DNA of 62,129 nucleotides, the filler included, from Diploschistes diacapsis (taxonomy: Eukaryota): the NCBI GenBank assembly GCA_023645945.1. It is 10 parts of 10 records of this genome, joined end to end, with 100 filler letters (N's around TTAATTAATTAA, not from the genome) between each part and the next. Parts side by side here need not be neighbours in the genome. Positions count along the whole stretch, not along the records: positions 1 to 26,347 come from JALAIB010000182.1; 9 more parts are not named here. One strand, given 5' to 3'. Shown one piece after another: positions 1,996 to 34,335 of the stretch; within the stretch, counting starts at the first letter, position 1; each line of letters opens with the position of its first letter. The notes below the pieces were generated by a model, which saw only the letters and a list, made by a program, of their open reading frames with translations, made no database searches and was not told the origin of the DNA. The position numbers were made by a program, and so were the translations under genes.

Positions 1996-3809
1996 ATGGC
2001 GACCTCAAAAGACCAAAAGCTGCTAAAGCAGACTAAGTTCCCCCCGGAGTTCAGTAAGAAGGTGGACATGCAGAAGGTGAACGTCGAGGTTATGAAAAAG
2101 TAGGGATGGACTTTAGCTGGCTTGGTCACAGGACTGACTAGCCTGTGTTCTAGATGGATAGCAGGCAAGATCTCTGAGATACTTGATAGTGAGGACGATG
2201 TGGTTATTGAACTATGCTTCAACCTGCTAGAAGCGTCTCGCTATGTTGGTTACTCCTTCCCCGGCCCTGTGATTCAGCTAATTCCTTGCAGCCTGATATC
2301 AAAGATCTCCAGATCAAGCTGACAGGCTTCCTCGACAAAGATACGGCCAAGTTTTGCAAGGAGCTATGGAACCTTTGTCTAAGTGCACAAAGCAATCCCC
2401 AGGGCGTACCAAAAGAGCTCCTCGAAGCCAAGAAGCTTGAATTGATACAAGAGAAGGTGGAAAATCTAGTTATGCTGGGAAGCAATGATCTGACTATATC
2501 CATAGATTGATGCAGAGAAGTCTGCAGAGGCCGCAAGGAAGCGGAAAGAGGAGGAACGGCAGCGGGATCGTAACATTGACAGCATCCGCCAAAGGGAACG
2601 TGGTGAGAGAGGTTTCGGGCGAGGAAGGGGTGGTGGAGAGGCATTCCCTGATCGACATCCACCACGCTACTCGAGGTCCCCACCTAGAGAATTCGATCGT
2701 CGCAGATACTCTAGATCCCCACCACGGCGTCGTGCCTCGCCGCCGCCGAGAGGCTACTACCATGGCCCTCCACGACGAGACACAGATACATACAAGCCCG
2801 GGGGAAGGCGTGGTCGGGATCGCTATGACGATCGCAGACGCCCATCTCCACCACGTCGACGATCACTAACTCCCTCATCTAGGTCATCTCGCTCTGCATC
2901 CCCACCACCCCGAAGGCGGAGAAGCCCACAGTTTGGAAGGGGCGAGAGGAGGCAACGGAGTCCTCCACCACGTGGTGATCACCGCACACGATCCTACACA
3001 CCCTCCGAGGCTTCACGCTCACGTTCCCCTAGAAGACCCCGCAGTCCATCATCCAGATCAATGTCTCGCTCATCATCTCCGCGCCGTTACCCCATCGAGC
3101 GTCGACGAAGAAACACGTCTTCATTTATCTCTCGATCCAGATCAATGAGTCGAGAACGGAAGTCTCAGAGGCCAGGGAGATCTGCTCAATACCCACGTTC
3201 AGAAGCCGGTGATAGAGATTCAACTACTGACCGTCGCAAGGGCCGTGAACGTCAGCAATCTCGAGAAGTGCCACACCGCATGCCGCCCAAGCGTGAAGAT
3301 GACAGAAGCAGGAGCAAAACGCCAGAGAAGCCGCGCAAGCGTCACCGGTCGCTAGAACGCTACCAGCCGGCTGCCAGACGCAGGCGGGACACTTCTTCCG
3401 TGTCCTCCACGGCGCAAAGAAAGAGACAGAAGAGTGCGGACGTATCCGATGACGAGCGAGGAAAAAGCAAGCGTCGAAGACGTGATGCGGACGAGGGAAC
3501 GCTCAAGGGAGAAGAGGTGAGCAGTGACTCCTGAATTTCAGAAGCTCACGTGGTCATTCGGGTACTGTACACAAGTTTTCTGGCGAGGGGTTGGGTACAT
3601 CATCTCATTCGCAACCCTTTCCTCTTCTATTATGCATCAAGATCATGCTAATAGTTTCGCCACCCTAGGAACCATCCCCGTCCGCCGCTAGAAATCACAA
3701 AGCCACGGAGAACGAGCTGAAAGAGAAGGTACTGAAGGAGAAGATCATCGCAATGAGGAGGCAGTCTGTCAATGGAACAAAACCAGCGAAGGGTTCGCTT
3801 GAAAGGTAG
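1996..3809 (+). CDS. PWI-domain, RS-rich splicing coactivator (SRm160/SRRM1-like), multi-exon
   Basis: MATSKDQKLLKQTKFPPEFSKKVDMQKVNVEVMKK/WIAGKISEILDSEDDVVIELCFNLL/PDIKDLQIKLTGFLDKDTAKFCKELWNLCLSAQSNPQGVPKELLEAKK is a PWI domain, followed by long Arg/Ser/Pro repeats. The last exon ...ENELKEKVLKEKIIAMRR...SLER* ends at 3809; the 3' exon structure is inferred. Confidence 0.85.
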
Positions 3810-4858
3810 CCGAGAAACCGATGGGGGTGTGCTTTGCATACCCTTCATTACATAGCTGCCTTAGTTAGGATGATCATGTTCAAGCAATTTTGTGCTAGAT
3901 AGCCATGTAACTGATAGCTTGCCAAACTCTTCAATACTCCTTATCAGCGCTTCCACATACCGGTGGTTTTCACCATCGTGTCTATCCTTAGACATTCCGC
4001 TACAAGTAATCACTACCGACGACGCAATGCAGCCATTTGGTTTTTGCATTCTCATTTCAGGGCAACCCACAAACTAGGCTAGGGCGAAACCAGCTACAAA
4101 CAGAGCGGCAGTAGAAGGCGGTACCGCAAGACGCGGTCCCAGCTCCACCGCCCAAAGTGACCTTCAACGGAGGGATAGTAGCGGCATCTGCCCAAAAGAC
4201 GGTAGTAAAAAAGGCCAGTACCAACCCCCGATGCGGTCCCTTTGTTTCGCCAGTAATATCCCACCACCGGCCCATCGCCGGGCAAAAGGTTTGGATGGAG
4301 TTTTAGCCCGTGGCCTTCTCTTCGTTATTCGCTCCGGGCTCTTGCTGAGTGGGCTCGATGGGCTCGCCTTCCTGTCTCCATGCCTTTTTCGCTGGAAAAT
4401 CCATCTGTCGTTTTATTTGTCTGTTTTTTTGTGGGTTGTTTTGGGTAAGCACATGTGTAGAGGAAGAGATTAGATGTACAGGTGTCGTGGGACTTGTTGG
4501 TACAGGGTGGCTGTCGGAGACTGAATGTTGCCAAAGGTCGAAAGTGAGTGGATAGTAGATGAATAGTAAGGGAGGTATTGTCCGCCATCCACTGCCCCCG
4601 TTTGTTTGTCGCTTAGTCGTCCGTTGCGCACGCCCTCCATTTGTCCCGTCCTCTTCTGGAAATATTTTCGCCGCGACTGCTCCTTCACAAGATTTCCGGT
4701 CTCGGCCGTTTAGGCACGAGGGTCAAACCGCGATCCATGTCCGTCTTGTTGCTTATCCTGCCCTACACAATACGACTACGGCCGAGAAAGCAAACCCGAC
4801 CGACCGCAGCCCTATACGCCACCATGAAAAATAAAAAAGGTTGACGAGGTTGCGGCGC

Positions 4859-19629: not shown

Positions 19630-21274
19630 TTACATCTCAACCAACTGCCCCAATCGGCCCTCGATAGCTTCGCGACCCTCGAGAGTCTTCCACACCTCGT
19701 GCGGCGCTTTTTTTACAACATCCCAGGCAATCAAGTTCTCCGTGATCTTGGTCAGCTGCTGCTGTTTATCGGCCCAATCTTTGTTGCTTCTGTAAAGAAT
19801 TCCAGAGCTCACAACGACTAACGCAGTATCTTTATCTTGGATATTTCTCGCTTGCGTAATCTCCGTCTTCGTTAGTGACGTTGCAACCAGGTTTTCCTGC
19901 AGCTTAGATTTGATGAATTTGCCACTTTGATCCGCCGATCTTCCATACACACGATCCTCGCGGGTTCGCCCGCGGAAGAGGGCGCCCATCAGGCGTTGAA
20001 GTCCAAGAGGCGAGATGATACCCCACGCCCATAGCAGAAAGCCATGAGTGGGTTCTCCGATTTTCCAAAGTAGATCCTCGTGAAGGGGGTCAATCATAAG
20101 AAGGGCTTTAACGTATCCACGGTTGCGGCTTGAGAATATCCTAGAGTGGATGCTACCTATACCAGCCGACACGAGAATCCATGGACCCTCTTCACCTGCC
20201 TGTGCCAAGGATTCCATAAGGGCTTCGACAGACATGCCAGCCGAGTGAGGTGACGGAGCATTATCCGAGAAGGCCAACCCAGGGCGATCCCAGTAGCAGT
20301 ATCGGGCAATCGTGCCGTTCTTGTATGCATTGTCAAAGAATGGCTCCATGGTACCCTCGTAGGGGTATTCGCCAGCTTCGACTAGTACAGTTGGGAATCC
20401 CTGTTCTGCGTACGTTGCATTGCCGATGCACTGCACGTGAACCTGGTATTTCCCATCATCGACGTACCATCGCTTGCCGGGAGCCTCCAGCGACGCATCA
20501 CGCGCTCTGAGGACAAGAGTCGCAGTCAAAAGTACCGTCACAATGATGATGACGACCATGATGATCGTGTAAGCAAAAACTCCGCACCATTCCCTTAACG
20601 ATCGTCTCGTCTCGCGTCTGCCTGTAAGACGCTCTTCTTCCTCGGATTTACCCCATGCAACGATCCTGTCTGTCATGACGCTATATCCAGCGATTGCTGT
20701 GGCCCACACCACAGAAGCGATACCGACCCATCCCTCCTCCAATCGCAATTGAGGTATCGAGACAATCATGATCATGTCAACCAGAAGTAGCACAGCGGTC
20801 AACATGCTTGTGACTTCTAGTGCTTTTGATGGGATTGAGAAAAAAAGTATCGCAACGAGAAGATTGCCAAGGGTAAGCGTGGTGTAGGATACGTCGAAGA
20901 ATCCGGATCCTCTGGAATGCATACCCGGTGGACTGACGAAGATTGAAACCAACAGTAGTACCCACCAAAGAGAAGTGACAACAAGCAAGAGGATGGCGAA
21001 GTAACGAACGGCTCGGACGCTCCAAAGGTTGTATGGTGTAACCTGCATGAGAATTTAGCATCAATACTCCAACTTATTGAGCGTTGACTCTTACAGCTGG
21101 GTCATCGGGGTCTAAGTAGCCGTCATTTCGCGAAGATGGGAGAAGCCTCGTCCTTTCGTCTGCATCTTGACTTCGACGCTCATGTGCATTGTGACTACCC
21201 TCAGCATGGCGTTGTCCATCTTCGTCTACTGCATTGTCTCGTTTCGAATCCCTGGTGCCCCAAAGTGAGACCAT
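19630..21274 (-). CDS. Integral membrane protein with C-terminal alpha/beta-hydrolase-like domain (2 exons)
   Basis: Exon 1 MVSLWG...LDPDDPA joined by a GTAAGA..CAG intron to VTPYNLW. About 5 hydrophobic helices, then RYCYWDRPGLAFSDNAPSP and ILVSAGIG, where the nucleophile elbow looks degenerate. Confidence 0.85.
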
Positions 21275-21673
21275 GGTGATTAAGAATTTAACAAGCCAGA
21301 AGACCCGAGCTTAATCAGAAAGACTCTGAAGAAGGAATTGCTGTCCCAGATGAGTTGAAACACAGAGCTCATGTGCTATAAGCGTAGATGCCTTCCGAAA
21401 GATCCAGATCAACTTCAGCTTCACAGTTCACGACTAACTCAAGAAAATAACTGGTTTAGGATAATGAAGCGAGGATAGGGAGTTGAAAACCAAGAGAGAT
21501 GAAGCAGAGTTAGCAGTCTATGATCACACAGGAAGCATCAACCCGTGTAGCCATGATTTTACCTTAGACGTAATGGTGATGGGGTGGGGAATGCACGTGG
21601 TGGTGGTCAGCCCAGCCCTGGATGTATTACACCAACAACCTCATAGCTTCAAAGCAATCAAAAAAAATACTTC

Positions 21674-21678
21674 AAAAA
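21674..21678 (-). terminator. RNA polymerase III terminator (T5; second T-run at ~21660-21667)
   Basis: TTTTT 6 nt downstream of the tRNA discriminator base on the transcribed strand. Confidence 0.8.
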
Positions 21679-21719
21679 CAGAGACTCTCCTGCTGGGAAT
21701 CGAACCCAGGTCTCCCGCG

Positions 21720-21727
21720 GTTTGTTA
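21720..21727 (-). other. Canonical tRNA intron at position 37/38 (8 nt, TAACAAAC)
   Basis: Insert one base 3' of anticodon GTC. Its removal restores the 7-nt loop and the TCCGC/GCGGG stem. Confidence 0.85.
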
Positions 21728-21740
21728 TGACAAGCGGAAA

Positions 21741-21789
21741 CTACATCTCGTTAGATGTTTTCCCAAGAATACCATTTGATTTGACTTAC
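21741..21789 (-). other. Spliceosomal (U2-type)-like intron inside tRNA-Asp, between nt 24 and 25
   Basis: GTAAGTCAAATCAAATGGTATTCTTGGGAAAACATCTAACGAGATGTAG: consensus donor GTAAGT, branch CTAAC, acceptor TAG, 49 nt. Confidence 0.85.
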
Positions 21790-22412
21790 TCATGACCACT
21801 AGACCACAGAAGATGGTGTGAGACTTCAAAGGGATGTGCATAAGCCTTGTATGTGTATACCACCACCACCACCAGCCCATGGCCTTTGGCAATACCAAGT
21901 GGAATAAGGAAGTGCCTCCCTACCGTCATCTAGATGTGCATAATATCTGAACTTCAGCCCACAGCATGCATTGGTTGCCGACAGTTACTTGACTCAAATC
22001 ATACGGAGACCAGGTATGTTTAAAATCTACTATTCCCATATTCGTCCCCAGGCATGAAGAGCCTGACAGGAGGAACATTGAGTTATGAGTCAAATACGAC
22101 ATGACTTAGCTTGAATATGTAGTTCAGGGGAGGGCGGAGATAAAGCCAGGAAGTGGATAGATGATTAAAAGGTAAACCATTAGTTTCATGGGAAAGCCAT
22201 TCTTGTCTGCCTCCACTTCGCCACACCTTCATAAAGACCAACTTTGCCTCCATTCTTCTGCTATCCCTTATTTTGCTGGAGCATTGTACAAAATCGCGCA
22301 AATTATGCATGCCTTGACAAAAGATTGAGCGCCTGTTGCTCTTCCTCTCTCCATTTAATTACTAATCGGAGGAAATCTGCTCTCTCATCCTTTCCACTAT
22401 TCAGCGGCACGT

Positions 22413-24343
22413 TTACTGCTCAGCAGCAGCCGAAGACCGCGTGGTCCTCTTCTGCACCTCGCTCTGAACCTTTTCGCTCCCCGTGGTCGCCGCCTCAGCA
22501 ACTTTATCCTTCACCACTGATGCCGCCTCCTTTGCCTTGGCCGTGGCCTTCTTCGCGTTGTCCTGAGCTACGGCACTGTTCACACCTACTACGGCGAAGA
22601 GACCGGCGACGACAAGACCAAAGATGGTGACAAGGACGCCAGCGACTTCGGGGACGGTCTTGATAGCCTCCATAGGGTCGTGTTTGGCAACGGCTATGAA
22701 GACTTCAAACTTGTCTTGCACGTAGCGAAGAGGGTCATCCATGAAGTTAAGGTCCAGCGGCGATTTGGGCTTAGGTACCTCCTTGGGCTTGGAGGCGTCC
22801 TTTTCGGCTTGCTCGGCCTTGACCTTGAGATCGTACGTTTCGGCCTTAAGCTTGTCGGCGTCGGCGATGGAGTGACCGATGTAGATGTTATCGAAGAGAA
22901 TGTCGCTTTGCATTGTCCAGATTTCAAAACCAATCTAGGATTTCATTAGTGAGAATTAGAGCGCTGGTGTGAATACTCACAGCGCCCATCGGCTCAAGGT
23001 TAGCAGGTGTTTTGTCCTCGAAGTAATCAGGATTCTTGATCTTTCTTGGGGCCCACACGCCTTTGTATGCTGGGTTATCGATGAAAGGTGCGGTCCACTT
23101 GCCCTTATAGGCGGGGTTCTTCTTGGTGGGCTTCTCCCATTTGCCGCAGCCAGAGGCTTCCTGGCACTTGGGGTTCGGGATGCTAGGTGGGATCCAGTCA
23201 CCGTCCTCCTCATCATCCCAGTCCTCAGGCTTTTGGGCCTCTGGGTCAGGGATAGTGGTTGGCTCATCTTCAAGCCAGTCGTCAGGCTTCTCGGCTTCCT
23301 CGTCGACGATTTCGTATGGAGCGTTCTCGTCCCAGTCTTCCGGCTTCGTCGCGTCTGGGTCGGCGATTTTGGCCTCGTCTACCCAATCTTTAGGCTTCTC
23401 GTCCTTGGCATCGTCAATCTCCGCCGGAGGATTGAAGGCGGGTGAGAAGTCCTCCAAGAGGGTTCCATTCTTGGACGATGCACCGTCGACCTTGATCTCA
23501 AATGTCTGGTCTGGCCGTACAATCAGAGTGTAAAGATGGGTGATATCGTCAATCTTCGCGCTTGGCGGGGACTTGAGATGCTTCTCCTCATACTCGCCAG
23601 TCTTGGGGTTCTTGTGTCTAATGATGAAATGGACCTGTATTTTCGGGTAAGTACTAGCAAGTGGCATGTATTGAAGTTCCTACCTTGTTGGTAGCACCAC
23701 ACTTGTCTGGGCCAAACATGACAATGTAGGGAGATGAGTTCGAAAACTCTTCTGCATGTAGCTGTTTATTGTCCTGGAGAAGCTTCATGTACGCACCGCC
23801 GCACTCGAGGCCATCTAGACCAGAACGTTATCATTGAGCACAACAGGAACTCTGTTCAACCTACTCTGAAGCTTAACTTCGTACTGGACAACCATAGTCT
23901 TGCCATTGTTGTCAATGGTTTTGGGAAATTTGGCGGAAATGGCGTGATGGGCAGCAGCATTCTTGACGATCAAGCCCTTGTCGCCCGCCATGCCTTTCCA
24001 TTTCGTAGGTTCTTCAACTGCCCATTCACCCACGTACGCCCAATCTTCCTCACTCTTTGGGTCATCCTTTTTCGCTTTGGAAACGGTCCACCGAGAATCC
24101 CAATCATCGGTAAACTGCTCGAGAAAAGGAGCTGTTACTTTGGTCGGCTATTCCTCAAATTAGCTACAATCCCCCAGGGTACTATTCATCGAACAGCATG
24201 AAAAAGCTTTTCATAAAACATACCAAGAAGACGGGCTTCTCGACGACAGGTGGAACTGTTGAAGTATCTTCTGCATCTGCTCGCACGCCTCCAAGAAGGA
24301 GCACGGAAGAGCAGATGGCGTTTGCCAAAAGAGCGTAACGCAT
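22413..24343 (-). CDS. CNE1: Calnexin (ER lectin chaperone), 5 exons
   Basis: Signal peptide [35 protein letters not shown]-domain repeats (KPEDWDE, IPNPKC, GKW.AP.I.NP.YKG), [11 protein letters not shown]-terminal TM helix. Confidence 0.96.
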
Positions 24344-28265: not shown

Positions 28266-30143
28266 ATGGCCGCGTCCGGGTTCAGAGGAAGCCTTTCTTC
28301 TGCCCCTAATCTTCAAGTCCCGTATCCGACACGGCCGCCCTCGCCACGCAAGCGGCGAGCAATCCAGCGCTCTTCAGAAGAAGTTGATGGGATAATGTCT
28401 CTTAACGAATATATCCTAAGATCGGACCCGTATAGATTTACATACCCTTACCTGGACCCGGCCCCAATGGGGAAGCGACCTCTATTGCCGGATGATCCTC
28501 TATGGACAAGTTATGGGACCTTAACGAGGATTGCTGAGAATGAGCTTTGAAGTTTTGGAATTGACTGGGTCCAAGTGTTGGTTGCGGACTACCAGAGCAC
28601 TGTCCTTGATCCCAACAGCCCGATCCGATATGTTTTGAGTATAGATTCCAGGTCAGAACTGACACGGTCATGGCCTGATGCTGTTAAAGCCATAAGACAA
28701 GCGTTAGTCCAAGCCAACTTCGGTCATATAGCAGTGGAGCTTCTGAACGAAAGAGAAGTGTTCGTTTTGCGAGCATTCACATTTCCCGACGAAGGAGTAG
28801 GTTCAGGGGTGGATAAGATGTGGAAGAAAATCTATCCCGGCATTCTCAATATCCTGCAAACTAATCTGGAGAATTCCGATGCACGTTGGAGCTCGCTGAC
28901 TGCTTTTCTCTGTGGGCCGGAAGAGGTCAAGTCAAAACCCACCGTAGTTGTAACCATCGATGGTACAATTATCGGCCGCGCCAACGCAAATTGGGCTCAA
29001 CTTACACTACAGATCCAGAGCGTGCTGACAAAGAATGATTTGCAAGACTGGGAGGTTGAATTTGCCTATGGAAAGGTCTCGTTCTCAAGAGCAGTACCTA
29101 TCATGAGTACCAGGAATGCTGGAGATAGCCTGGGCGTGGTTGATACCAAGTTCACTGGTAGTATGGGTGGTTTTATCGGCCTCAGTACTGTTTCTAACAC
29201 GCAGATGCGTTGGTGTGCCGTGACCGCGCACCATGTAGTAAGACCGGAGCCAGAAGACACAGTAGAGTTTCAGAGTGACTTGCTCCTGCAGCCGCAAGAC
29301 ACTAGCCATCCTCGTGCGGTCAAGGTGAGAAGCCCAAGTCCAGGAGATTATAAAGATACTTTGGCGCGGCTGATAAAAGAACTCGATATGAATGGCAAGA
29401 CACGAGAAGGTTTGGAAGTCCGGCGAGCCAAGCAACATAGAGGGCTAAGCGCGAGACAAGAGAGTGAAGCCAAAGAGCTTGAGAATGTACAAAGAAAATT
29501 GGAAGAAAAGCTCGCTTGGCTTACCTCCAGAGAGCAGCCTTTCGGCCGAGTTGTTGCTTGCTCGGGGTTGCATGCAAACGAGCGATCGCATATGCTAGAC
29601 TGGGCTTTGGTCGAGGTTGGTAGAGAAAATCTCTGCCAAAATTATCCTATTGCCTTCCATGAACTGCCTGACGATCCCGGTCACGCCCCCCCAGAGGATT
29701 ACCAGTGGGATGGAAGATCTCCCAATAATAAGATCGAGCGAATGAAGCTTGGAGAATGGGTCGTGATGCGTGGGCGAACGTCCGGTACAAGAACTGGCAG
29801 AGTACACAAGCTTCCGGTTGCCGTCAAGAGGTGGGAAATACCAGGCCTGCCAGAAACCTTGGAATGGTTAATCGCTCCCACCCGATCAGCATGGGAGCCA
29901 GCCGAGCCAGCCGCCTTTGCCAAATCTGGAGACTCTGGTGCGTGGGTTTACAACGGGGCTGGCGCAATAGTTGGCCAAGTGATTGCGGAAGGCAAGAGGG
30001 AGGTTGGCAGGGACTTTGGACTGTCAATCGTGACGCCCGTACATGATCTTTTTCAGGATATCGAAGAAGCCACTGGGGCCGAGTTATACCTCCCGATGTT
30101 TGATGAGATGGAGGAAATGGAGGAATTTGGGAGAGAAAGTTAG
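28266..30143 (+). pseudogene. Trypsin-like (PA clan) serine protease-like protein interrupted by one in-frame TGA at 28548-28550
   Basis: ORFs 28266-28550 and 28575-30143 share a frame. Catalytic-triad-like motifs VTAHHV, LDWALV and KSGDSGA are intact. Confidence 0.7.
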
Positions 30144-31344
30144 TTTTTAGTTTGGCGGAATTGGATGTACAGTGCAATCAAGCCGAGGCGAAAAAGGGAA
30201 GAAGCTCTCTAATTCCCCTCTCTGCTTGCAATATTCTCCATCCATCTCCATATGTGAATAAAAGACCACCACCATCCGCTGCCCCCCCCCTTTCCATTCT
30301 ATCCCATTCCACCTCCCATCCAGACCGCCAACCAATCAACCCAGGATNNNNNNNNNNNNNNNNNNNNNNNNNNNNNNNNNNNNNNNNNNNNTTAATTAAT
30401 TAANNNNNNNNNNNNNNNNNNNNNNNNNNNNNNNNNNNNNNNNNNNNGAATATAGATAATTAAGTTGAATTATTATTAAACGCCGAATATTACTTTAATA
30501 ATAGATATAGAAAAATTAAAAAGATTTAGAATATATAATCATTTAACGACGAAATATTAAGTAATATTAGGAAACTTAGAGTCTTAAAAAAGAATCTTTA
30601 ATTAAAAGAGGAAGATAAGGTTTATGTATATACGAATAATTTTAGGACACGTAGATTCTTTAAGAAGTTAAATTACGTTAAAGTCGGATCTTTTTTTATC
30701 GATAAATAACTCGTTATACCGGACGAAATTAAACGAGTTAATTATCGATTTAAATTATTAAAAGACGCGAAAGTTTATTTAATGTTTTATTTTAAGTACC
30801 TCGAATTAGCATACTTAGACACACCGTTACAGGAAATCTTTTATTTTGAATCAGATAACGAAAATGAATAGGAAATCGAAGCAGTGGTATATTATAAAAA
30901 CGATAAATATCTAGTTAAATAAAAAAGCTATTTAGAGTCGGATATAATATAGGAACTTAAAAAAAACATAAAGTATTATAAAACGAAGTTAGCGAAATTT
31001 TATAGCGTTAACGGACCCACTATTAAAGATAATCAAGATTGAGGGTGGAGAGTTTACGGAATATACGTACATCTAATATAAGAATCTCACGGAATCGACG
31101 AAATAGAGGTTTCTTTCTGCGCTATTGGCAGCGTATTATTTCTTAACTCCTAGTTTATTTGCGACGGCGATATGCTCGTTAATAATTGAAGATCCTGCGG
31201 GTTACCCGTGAGCACCATGTTGTTGTTCGGATCGTTAATCGCCTCAGCCTTTTTATTTAACTAATTAGTAAGATATTTGGCCTATTTTATAAATTTCTTT
31301 TCGGCTAGTTTCAGAGTTTTTCGTAGTTTCTGTATCCGGGTTTC

Positions 31345-31507
31345 TGTAAGGCCTGCGGGGTTACACATCTGCCTCGGCTGCCACAGCCACGCACCTACAT
31401 ATAGTGTAATAGGGAAACAGTGCTTCGGGGTTCCTGAAAGCATTGTGTTAGTCTTTTGGCTCAGTGGGATAGCGCTACCCTATTAGGCACTAACCCCCGC
31501 TGTTACA
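31345..31507. mobile_element. Nested solo LTR (163 bp) with 5-bp target-site duplication GTTTC
   Basis: GTTTC|TGTAAG...TGTTACA|GTTTC. TG..CA ends, TGTAA/TTACA inverted termini, and GC-richer than its host. Confidence 0.85.
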
Positions 31508-31880
31508 GTTTCATATTCTATTAGTTGAAAAAAGAGTTTTCGTCTTTTTTCTTCTTTTAATTTTAATTTAGATTTCGTCTGAACGCGTATCTTATCTACA
31601 GCCTTTTAAGATGTCGAGATATAGTTCTTTCGTTCGAGATAAGCATATCTTTCGTAGCGAGAAGAGATGGACAACATGATAATATAGTGATAAGAAACAG
31701 TTTAATAGAAGTAAAAGAAGTTAGCGGTTTTGTTTACTCGAAGGATTTAATTAATAAGTTTGTGGTTATAAGAAGTTGAAGAAGATATCGTTGTTCTATG
31801 ACTTGGGATTTTTTTTTGTTTAGTACTTATGCTTATCTTTCGGCGTTTGTCGGGTCGATAAGGCTGAAGGAGGGGGATAG

Positions 31881-32345
31881 TGTTATGATTTAGGTTACCG
31901 AGTGGTTATCTAGTACGTTATAGCTAGTCGGGTATTTCTTAGTTATTTCTTGTATATAGCCAATTACGGATATTAGATTACGTGGTTAATAAATATTTAG
32001 TGATAGATATTTATTAGGGACAGATCTGCCTGGATAGTTATTTGTTAGTAATAGTTTTGTCGTAATAGTTCGGTTGTCGGTAATTAACTATCGTTTTGGA
32101 TTATATAGGAACACCGTTATGGTTCTTTTGAGTTGGGGCGTGTTTATTTTTATAAATATCTTTAGCGATTGTTCGAGATCAATCTATATTCGTTATTTTT
32201 TATTATTAGATAGTAATCTTTTTAGAGATTAGTATAGATTTATACTCGATCTATTTCTTCTCCTTCCATACTCCTCTTCTACCAGAGACCAAACTTACCT
32301 TGATCAATACCTCGTGTCCACGTTGTAGAGATAGAGATCATAACA
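31881..32345 (+). repeat. 3' LTR of the Gypsy element (465 bp)
   Basis: Starts TGTTATGAT right after the PPT and ends ATCATAACA, a perfect 9-bp inverted terminus. Confidence 0.85.
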
Positions 32346-32440
32346 GTATTACCGTTTGATTACGTAGTTATTATCGACGCTATTAATATCCAGATCGATA
32401 ATATTTTATCCGTTAATATCGATTACGATAAATAACTTAA

Positions 32441-32737
32441 TGAGAAATATCAGCCCAGGCGTGCCAAGCCACCGGGGTCACATGACGGCCGGGTCACATT
32501 ACGGGTACCAACCGTGCCGAGGATGTTAGGGGGTGGCTCTGTAGGCGGGTAGAACCCGAACCCCGTAGGGCTGGCACTTACACATTATTTATTCCTGCCA
32601 CCCTCCCACCTAGATAGTTCTTCTCTAGCTTTTCGAATCGAGACCTTTTACCTGCAGATGCCCAGCTACACGTAATCTCACCGGATCAGGCCCAGCCCCC
32701 CGGTAGTGTAGTATCCCATTCCTGCGCTGGCGTTTCA
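32441..32737. mobile_element. Solo LTR (297 bp) with 5-bp TSD CTTAA
   Basis: CTTAA|TGAGAAA...GTTTCA|CTTAA, a GC-rich island in AT-rich RIP background. Confidence 0.75.
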
Positions 32738-32742
32738 CTTAA

Positions 32743-34335
32743 TAAGTTAATCGATAAGCAATGAAAGTTAAGAAAAAAAAATCATAACATATTTATTCCG
32801 TTAAAAGAAATCTTCTCGACGATCCGACGAGAAACGACGCCGCCGTTTTAACTCAAGAAGCTTATCTGAAAGATATTTATTTTATGATAATAATAATTAT
32901 CGCGCGATGCGCTGTAAACTCGCGAAAAAATTTGAACAGATGGTCATCGTAATAAAAAATAAGAACCGAGAAAAGAAATCCCGAGATATCCGCAACAAAT
33001 AAAAAGACAATAACAAACGCGCCGGTAACGTAAAGAGTTCAGATAATAAAAGTTCAAAGACCGATACTGAACCTAAACCTAAACCTGAATCTTAAATATA
33101 ACTAACCAGTTTATCTGTTTAAGTATTAAACTCCTATTCGAGGTCGACGAATTAAAGTCGGTGAAGAAATACTCTATTTAGATATTAAATCCTATCATCT
33201 AGAATCTTCGACAAATCACAGTATCTTAGAGATTCCTGCTTCCTATGATCGTCCCGAACCAGATGATGGTGGCCGACGATTAATAAAGTTAAAAAAGCAT
33301 TTTTAGATTTCAATACTCTACGTTTAGGATATATTATATTTTCTTTCCGTATTGTCGGAATAAAAGGTTATATAAAGTAGGATTTACGAAATAGTCGTTG
33401 ACGGGATTACGACGCTTAAGACAACGCTGCTATATTACGAAATGTAACGTTTCCACTAAGGACAATCGGTCTTAATCGAAAAGATATTTAAATGAATTAA
33501 CATGCTGAATGATTTCGTCTGTAGGGAATATTGAATAAACGGACGGAAGTTATGGCTGTAAGTTCGGCTTGTTCCGGGAGGTTCACTGGGAGAATCCGGG
33601 AAGTTCACATGAACTTACTGAGGTTCAGCAGTTCAGTTCAGTTCAACTGAACCTTATGGAATCCGGTGGAATCCTGACTAGACCGATCAGGTGTAATGTG
33701 GGTAGTAAGGCTTAGCGAGTCCCGTGGGGTATAAAAGTCTGCACAGTAGGATTACTTCCTAGGACAAGACCTCTAGACTTCAATATATCCATTACGTTGC
33801 CAAACACTTATTAATATTCTTATTAATCGGAGTTTTTATTTCTCGTAATTAAATCTACTGATTAAGGTTTTCCTTAATTCCGGTTCGGGAGTATTATACA
33901 ATACTTTTGTTTTATCCGTTATAGTCGCCATAACTACGTCCGGGCGGGATATATTAATATACGTATATCCGTTTAACTTAAAAATCCGTGTCTCAAAATT
34001 AATCGTTAAATTATGAATATTTAGTTAAGGATTTCCGAAGATGACGTCGTAGATAATTATATCTATTAAATCGAAAATAAGTTTTTTAAGATATTCTAAA
34101 ATCCTGACCATTAACGGTAACGTACGTTTAATAATTTATAAAACGTTACGTGTCGTCACGGTTTCGAATGTGTATTTCTATTTTAATTCGTAATTGTTAT
34201 TTTCAACCGTTGTGTATAAAAAGTTAAAATAACGTTTATAATAATATTTAGATCGATTAATACCCGCACGGCATGTCAATCTAATTTAATCTCGGAAATA
34301 ATTTAAATTCTTTATCGTTTTAGAACCGTTATGCC
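32743..34335. mobile_element. Unclassified RIP-degraded repeat DNA containing an LTR-like GC-richer island (~33557-33900)
   Basis: TpA-rich with no intact ORFs. The island starts TGTAAG, contains TATAAAA and ends TATACA, but has no clear TSD. Confidence 0.5.

Follow-up and report, generated by a model that had tools for sequence, protein, structure and literature searches.

Spliceosomal introns are on record in U6, which is a Pol III gene, in U2, U5 and U1, and in rRNA genes, and introns of the mRNA type interrupt U6 of Schizosaccharomyces pombe and many other fungi as well as U2, U5 and U1 of Rhodotorula hasegawae (PMC5855946). The rDNA of lichen-forming and other ascomycetes also contains spliceosomal introns (Bhattacharya et al., 2000, cited in PMC8527467); removal by the spliceosome has been shown for rRNA, and engineered yeast removes such an intron from Pol I transcripts (PMC8527467). 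U6 and the rRNA genes of lichen-forming ascomycetes are the precedents that the initial annotation of the present locus had invoked. For tRNA, that annotation took it as established that introns are removed without the spliceosome, and a 2026 review classes tRNA splicing in just this way, as spliceosome-independent (PMC13149111). The initial annotation also knew of no spliceosomal intron described in a tRNA gene, and our search of the full-text literature, from which subscription journals are largely absent, likewise found no paper describing one.

The locus under study is a tRNA-Asp(GUC) gene in what we call the window, that is, the whole stretch of 62,129 nucleotides of DNA that was analysed. 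The features of the gene are as follows.

21685..21813, minus strand: whole tRNA-Asp(GUC) gene, made up of exon 1, a 49-nt D-arm intron, exon 2a, an 8-nt canonical intron and exon 2b (ARAGORN, on the form spliced in silico)
21790..21813, minus strand: exon 1, tRNA positions 1-24, with the 5' strand of the acceptor stem, the 5' strand of the D-stem, the D-loop and three of the four 3' bases of the D-stem
21796..21806, minus strand: A box TGGTCTAGTGG, part of the internal Pol III promoter (read from the sequence)
21741..21789, minus strand: 49-nt intron of spliceosomal type between tRNA positions 24 and 25 (kept in run X2, with counterparts in loci L001 and L002)
21784..21789, minus strand: 5' splice site GTAAGT (read from the sequence)
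21750..21754, minus strand: branch-site motif CTAAC; the branch A is presumed to be that at 21751, 10 nt short of the end of the intron
21741..21743, minus strand: 3' splice site TAG (read from the sequence)
21728..21740, minus strand: exon 2a, with U25, position 26, the 5' strand of the anticodon stem and the anticodon loop to position 37; anticodon GTC
21720..21727, minus strand: canonical 8-nt tRNA intron at 37/38, whose 3' end pairs 4/4 with the anticodon loop
21685..21719, minus strand: exon 2b, with C38, the 3' strand of the anticodon stem, the variable region, the T-arm, the 3' strand of the acceptor stem and G73
21696..21706, minus strand: B box GGTTCGATTCC (read from the sequence)
21660..21678, minus strand: Pol III terminator-like runs T5 (21678->21674) and T8 (21667->21660), just 3' of the gene

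Read along the minus strand, 24 nt of exon are followed by the 49-nt insert, 13 nt of exon, the 8-nt insert and 35 nt of exon ending in G73 (21685); the T5 run begins 7 nt past the gene, with the T8 run behind it. When the 49 nt were sliced out, ARAGORN returned a clean cloverleaf, a tRNA-Asp(gtc) of 72 nt whose remaining intron, of 8 nt, lies at 37/38. The unspliced gene gave no tRNA call with ARAGORN, either by default or with introns allowed (-i), and Rfam reported no tRNA at its gathering thresholds and, when E was relaxed to 10 for the 501 bases surrounding it, chance-level matches only; the expectation that standard tRNA finders would miss such a gene was therefore correct for both tools. 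Moving the cut by one base in either direction alters the tRNA product, and in an uninterrupted tRNA-Asp gene from another run (X3) exon 1 continues straight into the 13 nt of exon 2, which is precisely the junction that a GT/AG cut would produce, so that the exon boundaries of the 24/25 intron are unambiguous. After the cut the tRNA carries G73, the GTC anticodon, C38 and G10/U25, which serve as identity elements for aspartyl-tRNA synthetase in yeast. The A and B boxes, assigned by their consensus, are 57 nt farther apart in this gene, a lengthening that Pol III should tolerate. The anatomy first described for the locus (the coordinates, the GTAAGT, CTAAC and TAG signals, and the exact GT/AG cut) was reproduced from the sequence and by ARAGORN on the spliced form, and these two readings also bore out the statement that the stems, G73, the A and B boxes and the T5 terminator are intact.

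By every sequence test available, the insert is an intron of the spliceosomal type. Its size and signals resemble those of mRNA introns in neighbouring genes, as had been proposed, and two such introns were verified independently: a 52-nt intron in the DUF2417 gene (21043-21094, GTAAGA...CTAAA...CAG; tblastn) and a 46-nt intron in the calnexin gene (22935-22980; continuity of the Pfam profile). Further local candidates, which come from noisy reading-frame heuristics, are 46-56 nt long with a branch-to-end distance of 9-15 nt, and the 49-nt insert falls within the local range of lengths. With both strands of the 62-kb window counted, the strict motif GTAAGT-N15-80-CTAAC-N2-20-YAG has two matches, more than chance would give (50 mononucleotide shuffles averaged 0.32), and one of the two sits exactly where the tRNA needs a removal. 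In the 49-nt insert the terminal TAG provides the first usable AG past the branch; the sole earlier one (GAG) lies about 3 nt past the branch A. A check for repeats and introners, covering the 62-kb window, found no second copy of the insert.

A search for other tRNA halves around GT..YAG inserts had been suggested, and a metagenome scan was carried out in which 14 nt of exon 1 had to be followed, after any 35-65 nt, by 13 nt of exon 2, with GT/AG not required. The scan returned two loci, L001 and L002, both of them tRNA-Asp genes split at the same 24/25 site, and both inserts start with GTRAGT and end with TAG. There was no match in prokaryotic genome contigs or viral contigs, as expected of a fungal gene. 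The L001 insert is 54 nt long (GTAAGT...CTAAC, 8 nt, TAG) and the L002 insert 53 nt (GTGAGT...TAG). Across the three inserts, the 5' splice site at the exact exon boundary conforms to the fungal U2-type GURNGU (GTAAGT in the window and L001, GTGAGT in L002) and the YAG of the 3' splice site is TAG in every case. A CTAAC fitting CURAY puts the presumed branch A 10 nt from the end of the intron in the window and 12 nt from it in L001; the only CTAAC of L002 lies 4 nt after the donor, leaving that insert with no usable branch site. The intron interiors cannot be aligned in any of the three pairings (z of 0.27, -0.16 and 0.19 against shuffles). The canonical 37/38 introns measure 8 nt (window), 17 nt (L001), 21 nt (L002) and 17 nt (the uninterrupted X3 gene), and all of them end in a short motif that pairs 4/4 with the anticodon loop, forming the usual anticodon-intron helix.

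These inserts bear on the idea that the 49 nt are a non-canonical tRNA intron cut out by the tRNA splicing endonuclease, as happens in Cyanidioschyzon merolae, nucleomorphs and archaea, the GT..AG ends being incidental. Excised D-arm tRNA introns are indeed known in a few eukaryotic genomes (PMC4090602, PMC3728597). However, none of the three genes has a bulge-helix-bulge (BHB) motif at its D-arm junctions, whereas their canonical introns show the expected helix (a central helix of 4/4 in 3/3 genes), and the recurrence of GTRAGT...TAG in three unrelated inserts, with CTAAC in two, is far beyond chance; for L001 alone the chance was estimated at about 5e-4 x 1/32 x 0.03. Excision by the endonuclease is on this evidence very improbable. 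A BHB (3-4-3) model was fitted to the D-arm junctions and rejected, the best fits having 8, 8 and 9 of 12 pairs, with fractions of 0.65, 0.56 and 0.17 of 500 shuffles reaching the score. The identity of a canonical TSEN-dependent intron was likewise rejected for the 49-nt insert on account of its position at 24/25 and not 37/38.

The locus was also compared with closely related DNA in other runs. In X2, a DNA run of a close relative from another study, a contig of 284 nt covers 21675-21955 and retains the insert without any indel, all 9 gap letters of the alignment lying outside the tRNA gene. Seven of its 12 substitutions are listed, one in the intron interior (21764) and six in the 5' flank, and the other 5 may lie near the contig ends, including the last 27 nt of the gene. 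Across 21712-21813, which covers 102 nt of the gene, the one substitution among those listed is that at 21764, away from the splice signals, a sign that changes in the interior of the intron are allowed. By comparison, 6 substitutions and 3 indels (9 events) are listed for the 105 nt of 5' flank next to the gene. The change at 21764 (minus-strand G to A) makes a TAG upstream of the branch site, which should be harmless for the choice of 3' splice site. Run X3 contains, at similar depth, a relative about 98% identical to the window's fungus, together with the uninterrupted tRNA-Asp gene, whose flanks differ from those in the window. The contig of this relative has 80 other letters in place of 19 nt at 21608-21628, and it stops at 21659, just before the T-run behind the tRNA, without reaching the tRNA locus. 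Run X4 gave only a 33-nt match to the 3' part of the tRNA, with unlike sequence upstream. Run X1, the one run that contains the whole stretch, is labelled lichen metagenome and is the probable source of the window. Since X1 and the independent run X2 both show the same arrangement, as do two metagenome loci unrelated to them, an assembly artefact or chimera, in favour of which nothing was found, is scarcely credible.

The main rival to a working gene is a dead or dying paralogue, in which one of several tRNA-Asp genes received a spliceosomal intron, or a duplicate of such an intron, and makes no functional tRNA, having not yet decayed or being kept clean by gene conversion. L002 is a decayed copy of this kind: it has 2 broken pairs, changes in its T-loop destroy the B box, and ARAGORN rejects its spliced form, so interrupted copies can decay. 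The uninterrupted tRNA-Asp gene of X3, found in the same run as the 98% relative, means that the interrupted copy may be redundant, and a review takes eukaryotic tRNA genes with insertions in the D- or T-arm to be presumed pseudogenes (PMC4090602). The usual marks of a tRNA pseudogene (broken stems, loss of invariant bases, loss of the promoter), which are present in L002, are absent from the window and from L001, which when spliced in silico is a clean tRNA-Asp (ARAGORN). Comparison of the mature tRNA of the window with that of L001 shows 9 differences in 72 positions, confined to stems, and every difference preserves pairing (4 pairs with double compensatory changes, 1 changed on one side yet still paired, 0 broken), which argues against decay. 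So does the retention of the donor, CTAAC and TAG in the window and L001 despite interiors that have diverged beyond alignment, and so does the contrast in X2 between one listed change in 102 nt of gene and 9 events in 105 nt of flank; moreover, if intact copies were converting the gene, the insert would probably be lost. Splice signals kept in X2 and L001 around an interior free to change are what one would expect if the intron has to be spliced out. In the three genes, a small sample, integrity of the tRNA and integrity of the intron go together. The initial annotation had held that loss of the splice signals alongside decay of the exons would indicate a dead insertion; in L002 the exons have decayed and no usable branch site is left, with GTGAGT and TAG still present, while the window and L001 retain both signals and exons, as does X2 among its listed changes. 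Taken together, the comparative data point to selection on the intron signals and on the tRNA, and we consider a dead paralogue unlikely.

The genomic setting raises a different question, that of the polymerase. The DNA of the window is fungal, and the tRNA gene lies between a calnexin-family gene upstream and a DUF2417 gene downstream, all on the minus strand; the calnexin reading frame ends about 600 nt upstream of the tRNA gene, and the DUF2417 ATG at 21274 is 411 nt past it. Among named proteins related to the DUF2417 product, the best show 65-69% identity and come from several Pezizomycotina classes, with many lichen-forming Lecanoromycetes among them, and other relatives reach 84% identity. 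A database protein (P0001, 430 aa) that is identical to the window's DUF2417 product begins at an internal Met, and full-length relatives (529-556 aa) align to an additional first exon from 21274 (window 21092-21274, minus strand), so that the P0001 gene model appears to be 5'-truncated. Elsewhere in the window, positions 30001-34000 are low in G+C (0.34-0.38 against about 0.5 in the rest) and may be degraded repeat DNA. The contexts of L001 and L002 are AT-rich and unrelated, with no recognisable genes and no synteny with the window, and no Pfam family was found in their flanks in 8/8 reading frames. On the plus strand of L002, positions 2191-4447 hold long same-frame reading frames across single stops (2191-3108 then 3109-3558, and 3569-3931 then 3932-4447) that match no Pfam family, one frame of 305 aa having unnamed relatives only; the block may represent a mobile element that has decayed, like the tRNA copy next to it.

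With same-strand genes on both sides, the tRNA might be carried on a Pol II transcript, either read-through from calnexin or a long 5' leader of DUF2417, with the intron spliced co-transcriptionally and the tRNA then released by RNase P and RNase Z. Spliceosomes do normally work on Pol II transcripts. However, the A and B boxes and the T5 and T8 runs are intact in the window, and T6 and T5 runs follow the tRNA in L001 and L002, where the surroundings are unrelated and no neighbour genes are recognisable; Pol III signals kept in three unrelated contexts argue against the need for a Pol II precursor. U6 and rRNA, furthermore, show that Pol II is not required for spliceosomal removal (PMC5855946, PMC8527467). 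Splicing on a Pol II transcript is thus improbable in our estimation, though less so than excision by the endonuclease. The insert had also been said to avoid a T4 run that would stop Pol III, and this holds for the window and L002 and fails for L001, whose intron contains TTTT. This run (at about L001 375-378, minus strand) directly follows the GTAAGT donor. T4 is a Pol III stop in some eukaryotes, and if the Pol III of the L001 fungus stops there, the L001 copy would need another polymerase or read-through.

The explanation that we favour, and regard as fairly probable from the sequence comparisons, is that the window's tRNA-Asp(GUC) is a working nuclear gene of a Pezizomycotina fungus from a lichen sample, carrying a selected spliceosomal intron in addition to its canonical one. 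Transcription would be by Pol III, directed by the intact A and B boxes and ending in the T5/T8 runs. The nuclear U2-type spliceosome would then read GUAAGU, CUAAC and UAG, the 49-nt D-arm intron leaving as a lariat and A24 being joined to U25, and only after this removal could G10 pair with U25 and the D-stem and tRNA core take shape. The tRNA splicing endonuclease picks its cut sites by a ruler mechanism, measuring from the folded tRNA body. Through Sen54 it contacts the D-arm (PMC4090602). Because the enzyme needs the folded mature domain, it should act second, and together with the ligase it would take out the 8-nt intron at 37/38, after which the ends would be trimmed and CCA added. The 24/25 intron would be old or recurrent, given that a second, diverged lineage has an intron at this very position, and selection would have kept the splice signals and the tRNA exons while the interior drifted. 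Several points count against this explanation. Even in a functionless copy, the exons could be kept clean if intact paralogues converted them, and an uncapped transcript with a 5' exon of 24 nt and a short leader may be a difficult substrate for a spliceosome; the explanation is also opposed by the 5 unlisted X2 substitutions, which could fall in the last 27 nt of the gene, by the decay of L002, the TTTT of L001, the uninterrupted gene of X3 and the pseudogene view of D-arm insertions in PMC4090602. Of the wider proposition, that spliceosomal introns form a third, unrecognised class of nuclear tRNA intron and that in a group of Pezizomycotina including lichen-associated fungi the tRNA-Asp 24/25 intron has been carried through speciation, we would say that on these sequences the case is evenly balanced.

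If a working gene is indeed spliced in this manner, it would provide the first example of a single 72-nt RNA processed successively by two splicing systems, and it would show that the spliceosome can accept tRNA precursors made by Pol III in which the 5' exon is 24 nt long. For the decoding of GAU and GAC, the cell would rely entirely or partly on the spliceosome, which would have to process a Pol III transcript ahead of the tRNA endonuclease, and together with the introns of lichen rDNA this would imply that these fungi tie the supply of both rRNA and tRNA to splicing capacity. It would bear as well on intron gain, because reverse splicing into an abundant RNA that is absent from the spliceosome would be needed. 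Since ARAGORN and Rfam miss the split gene, the tRNA sets of such fungi may seem short of genes that are actually present.

Set beside the known systems, the gene has one intron of a familiar kind and one that differs from each of them. Its 8-nt intron is a canonical 37/38 tRNA intron, whereas the position of the 49-nt insert, 24/25, is one that the ruler of the endonuclease does not reach. With the tRNA introns of Cyanidioschyzon merolae, nucleomorphs and archaea it shares a D-arm intron in a nuclear tRNA gene accompanied by a second intron, but those introns have a BHB motif and are removed by the tRNA endonuclease, in contrast to the present insert, which has spliceosomal signals and no BHB (PMC4090602, PMC3728597). 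The snRNA introns are like it in being short, with a canonical 5' splice site, branch site and 3' splice site, in a small structured non-coding RNA gene; U6, moreover, is transcribed by Pol III, conservation is limited to the signals, and an origin by reverse splicing has been proposed (PMC5855946). The host RNAs listed in that review are U6, U2, U5, U1 and rRNA, without tRNA. Unlike the snRNA hosts, tRNA plays no part in the spliceosome, so that proximity to the catalytic centre cannot explain an insertion into it, and tRNA-Asp has a second intron handled by a different enzyme system. The rDNA introns of lichens come from the same kind of organism and are likewise ectopic, in genes of the translation apparatus outside Pol II transcription (PMC8527467). 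They differ in residing in an rRNA made by Pol I and not in a 72-nt tRNA made by Pol III, in which the 5' exon is 24 nt long and the intron blocks the D-stem.
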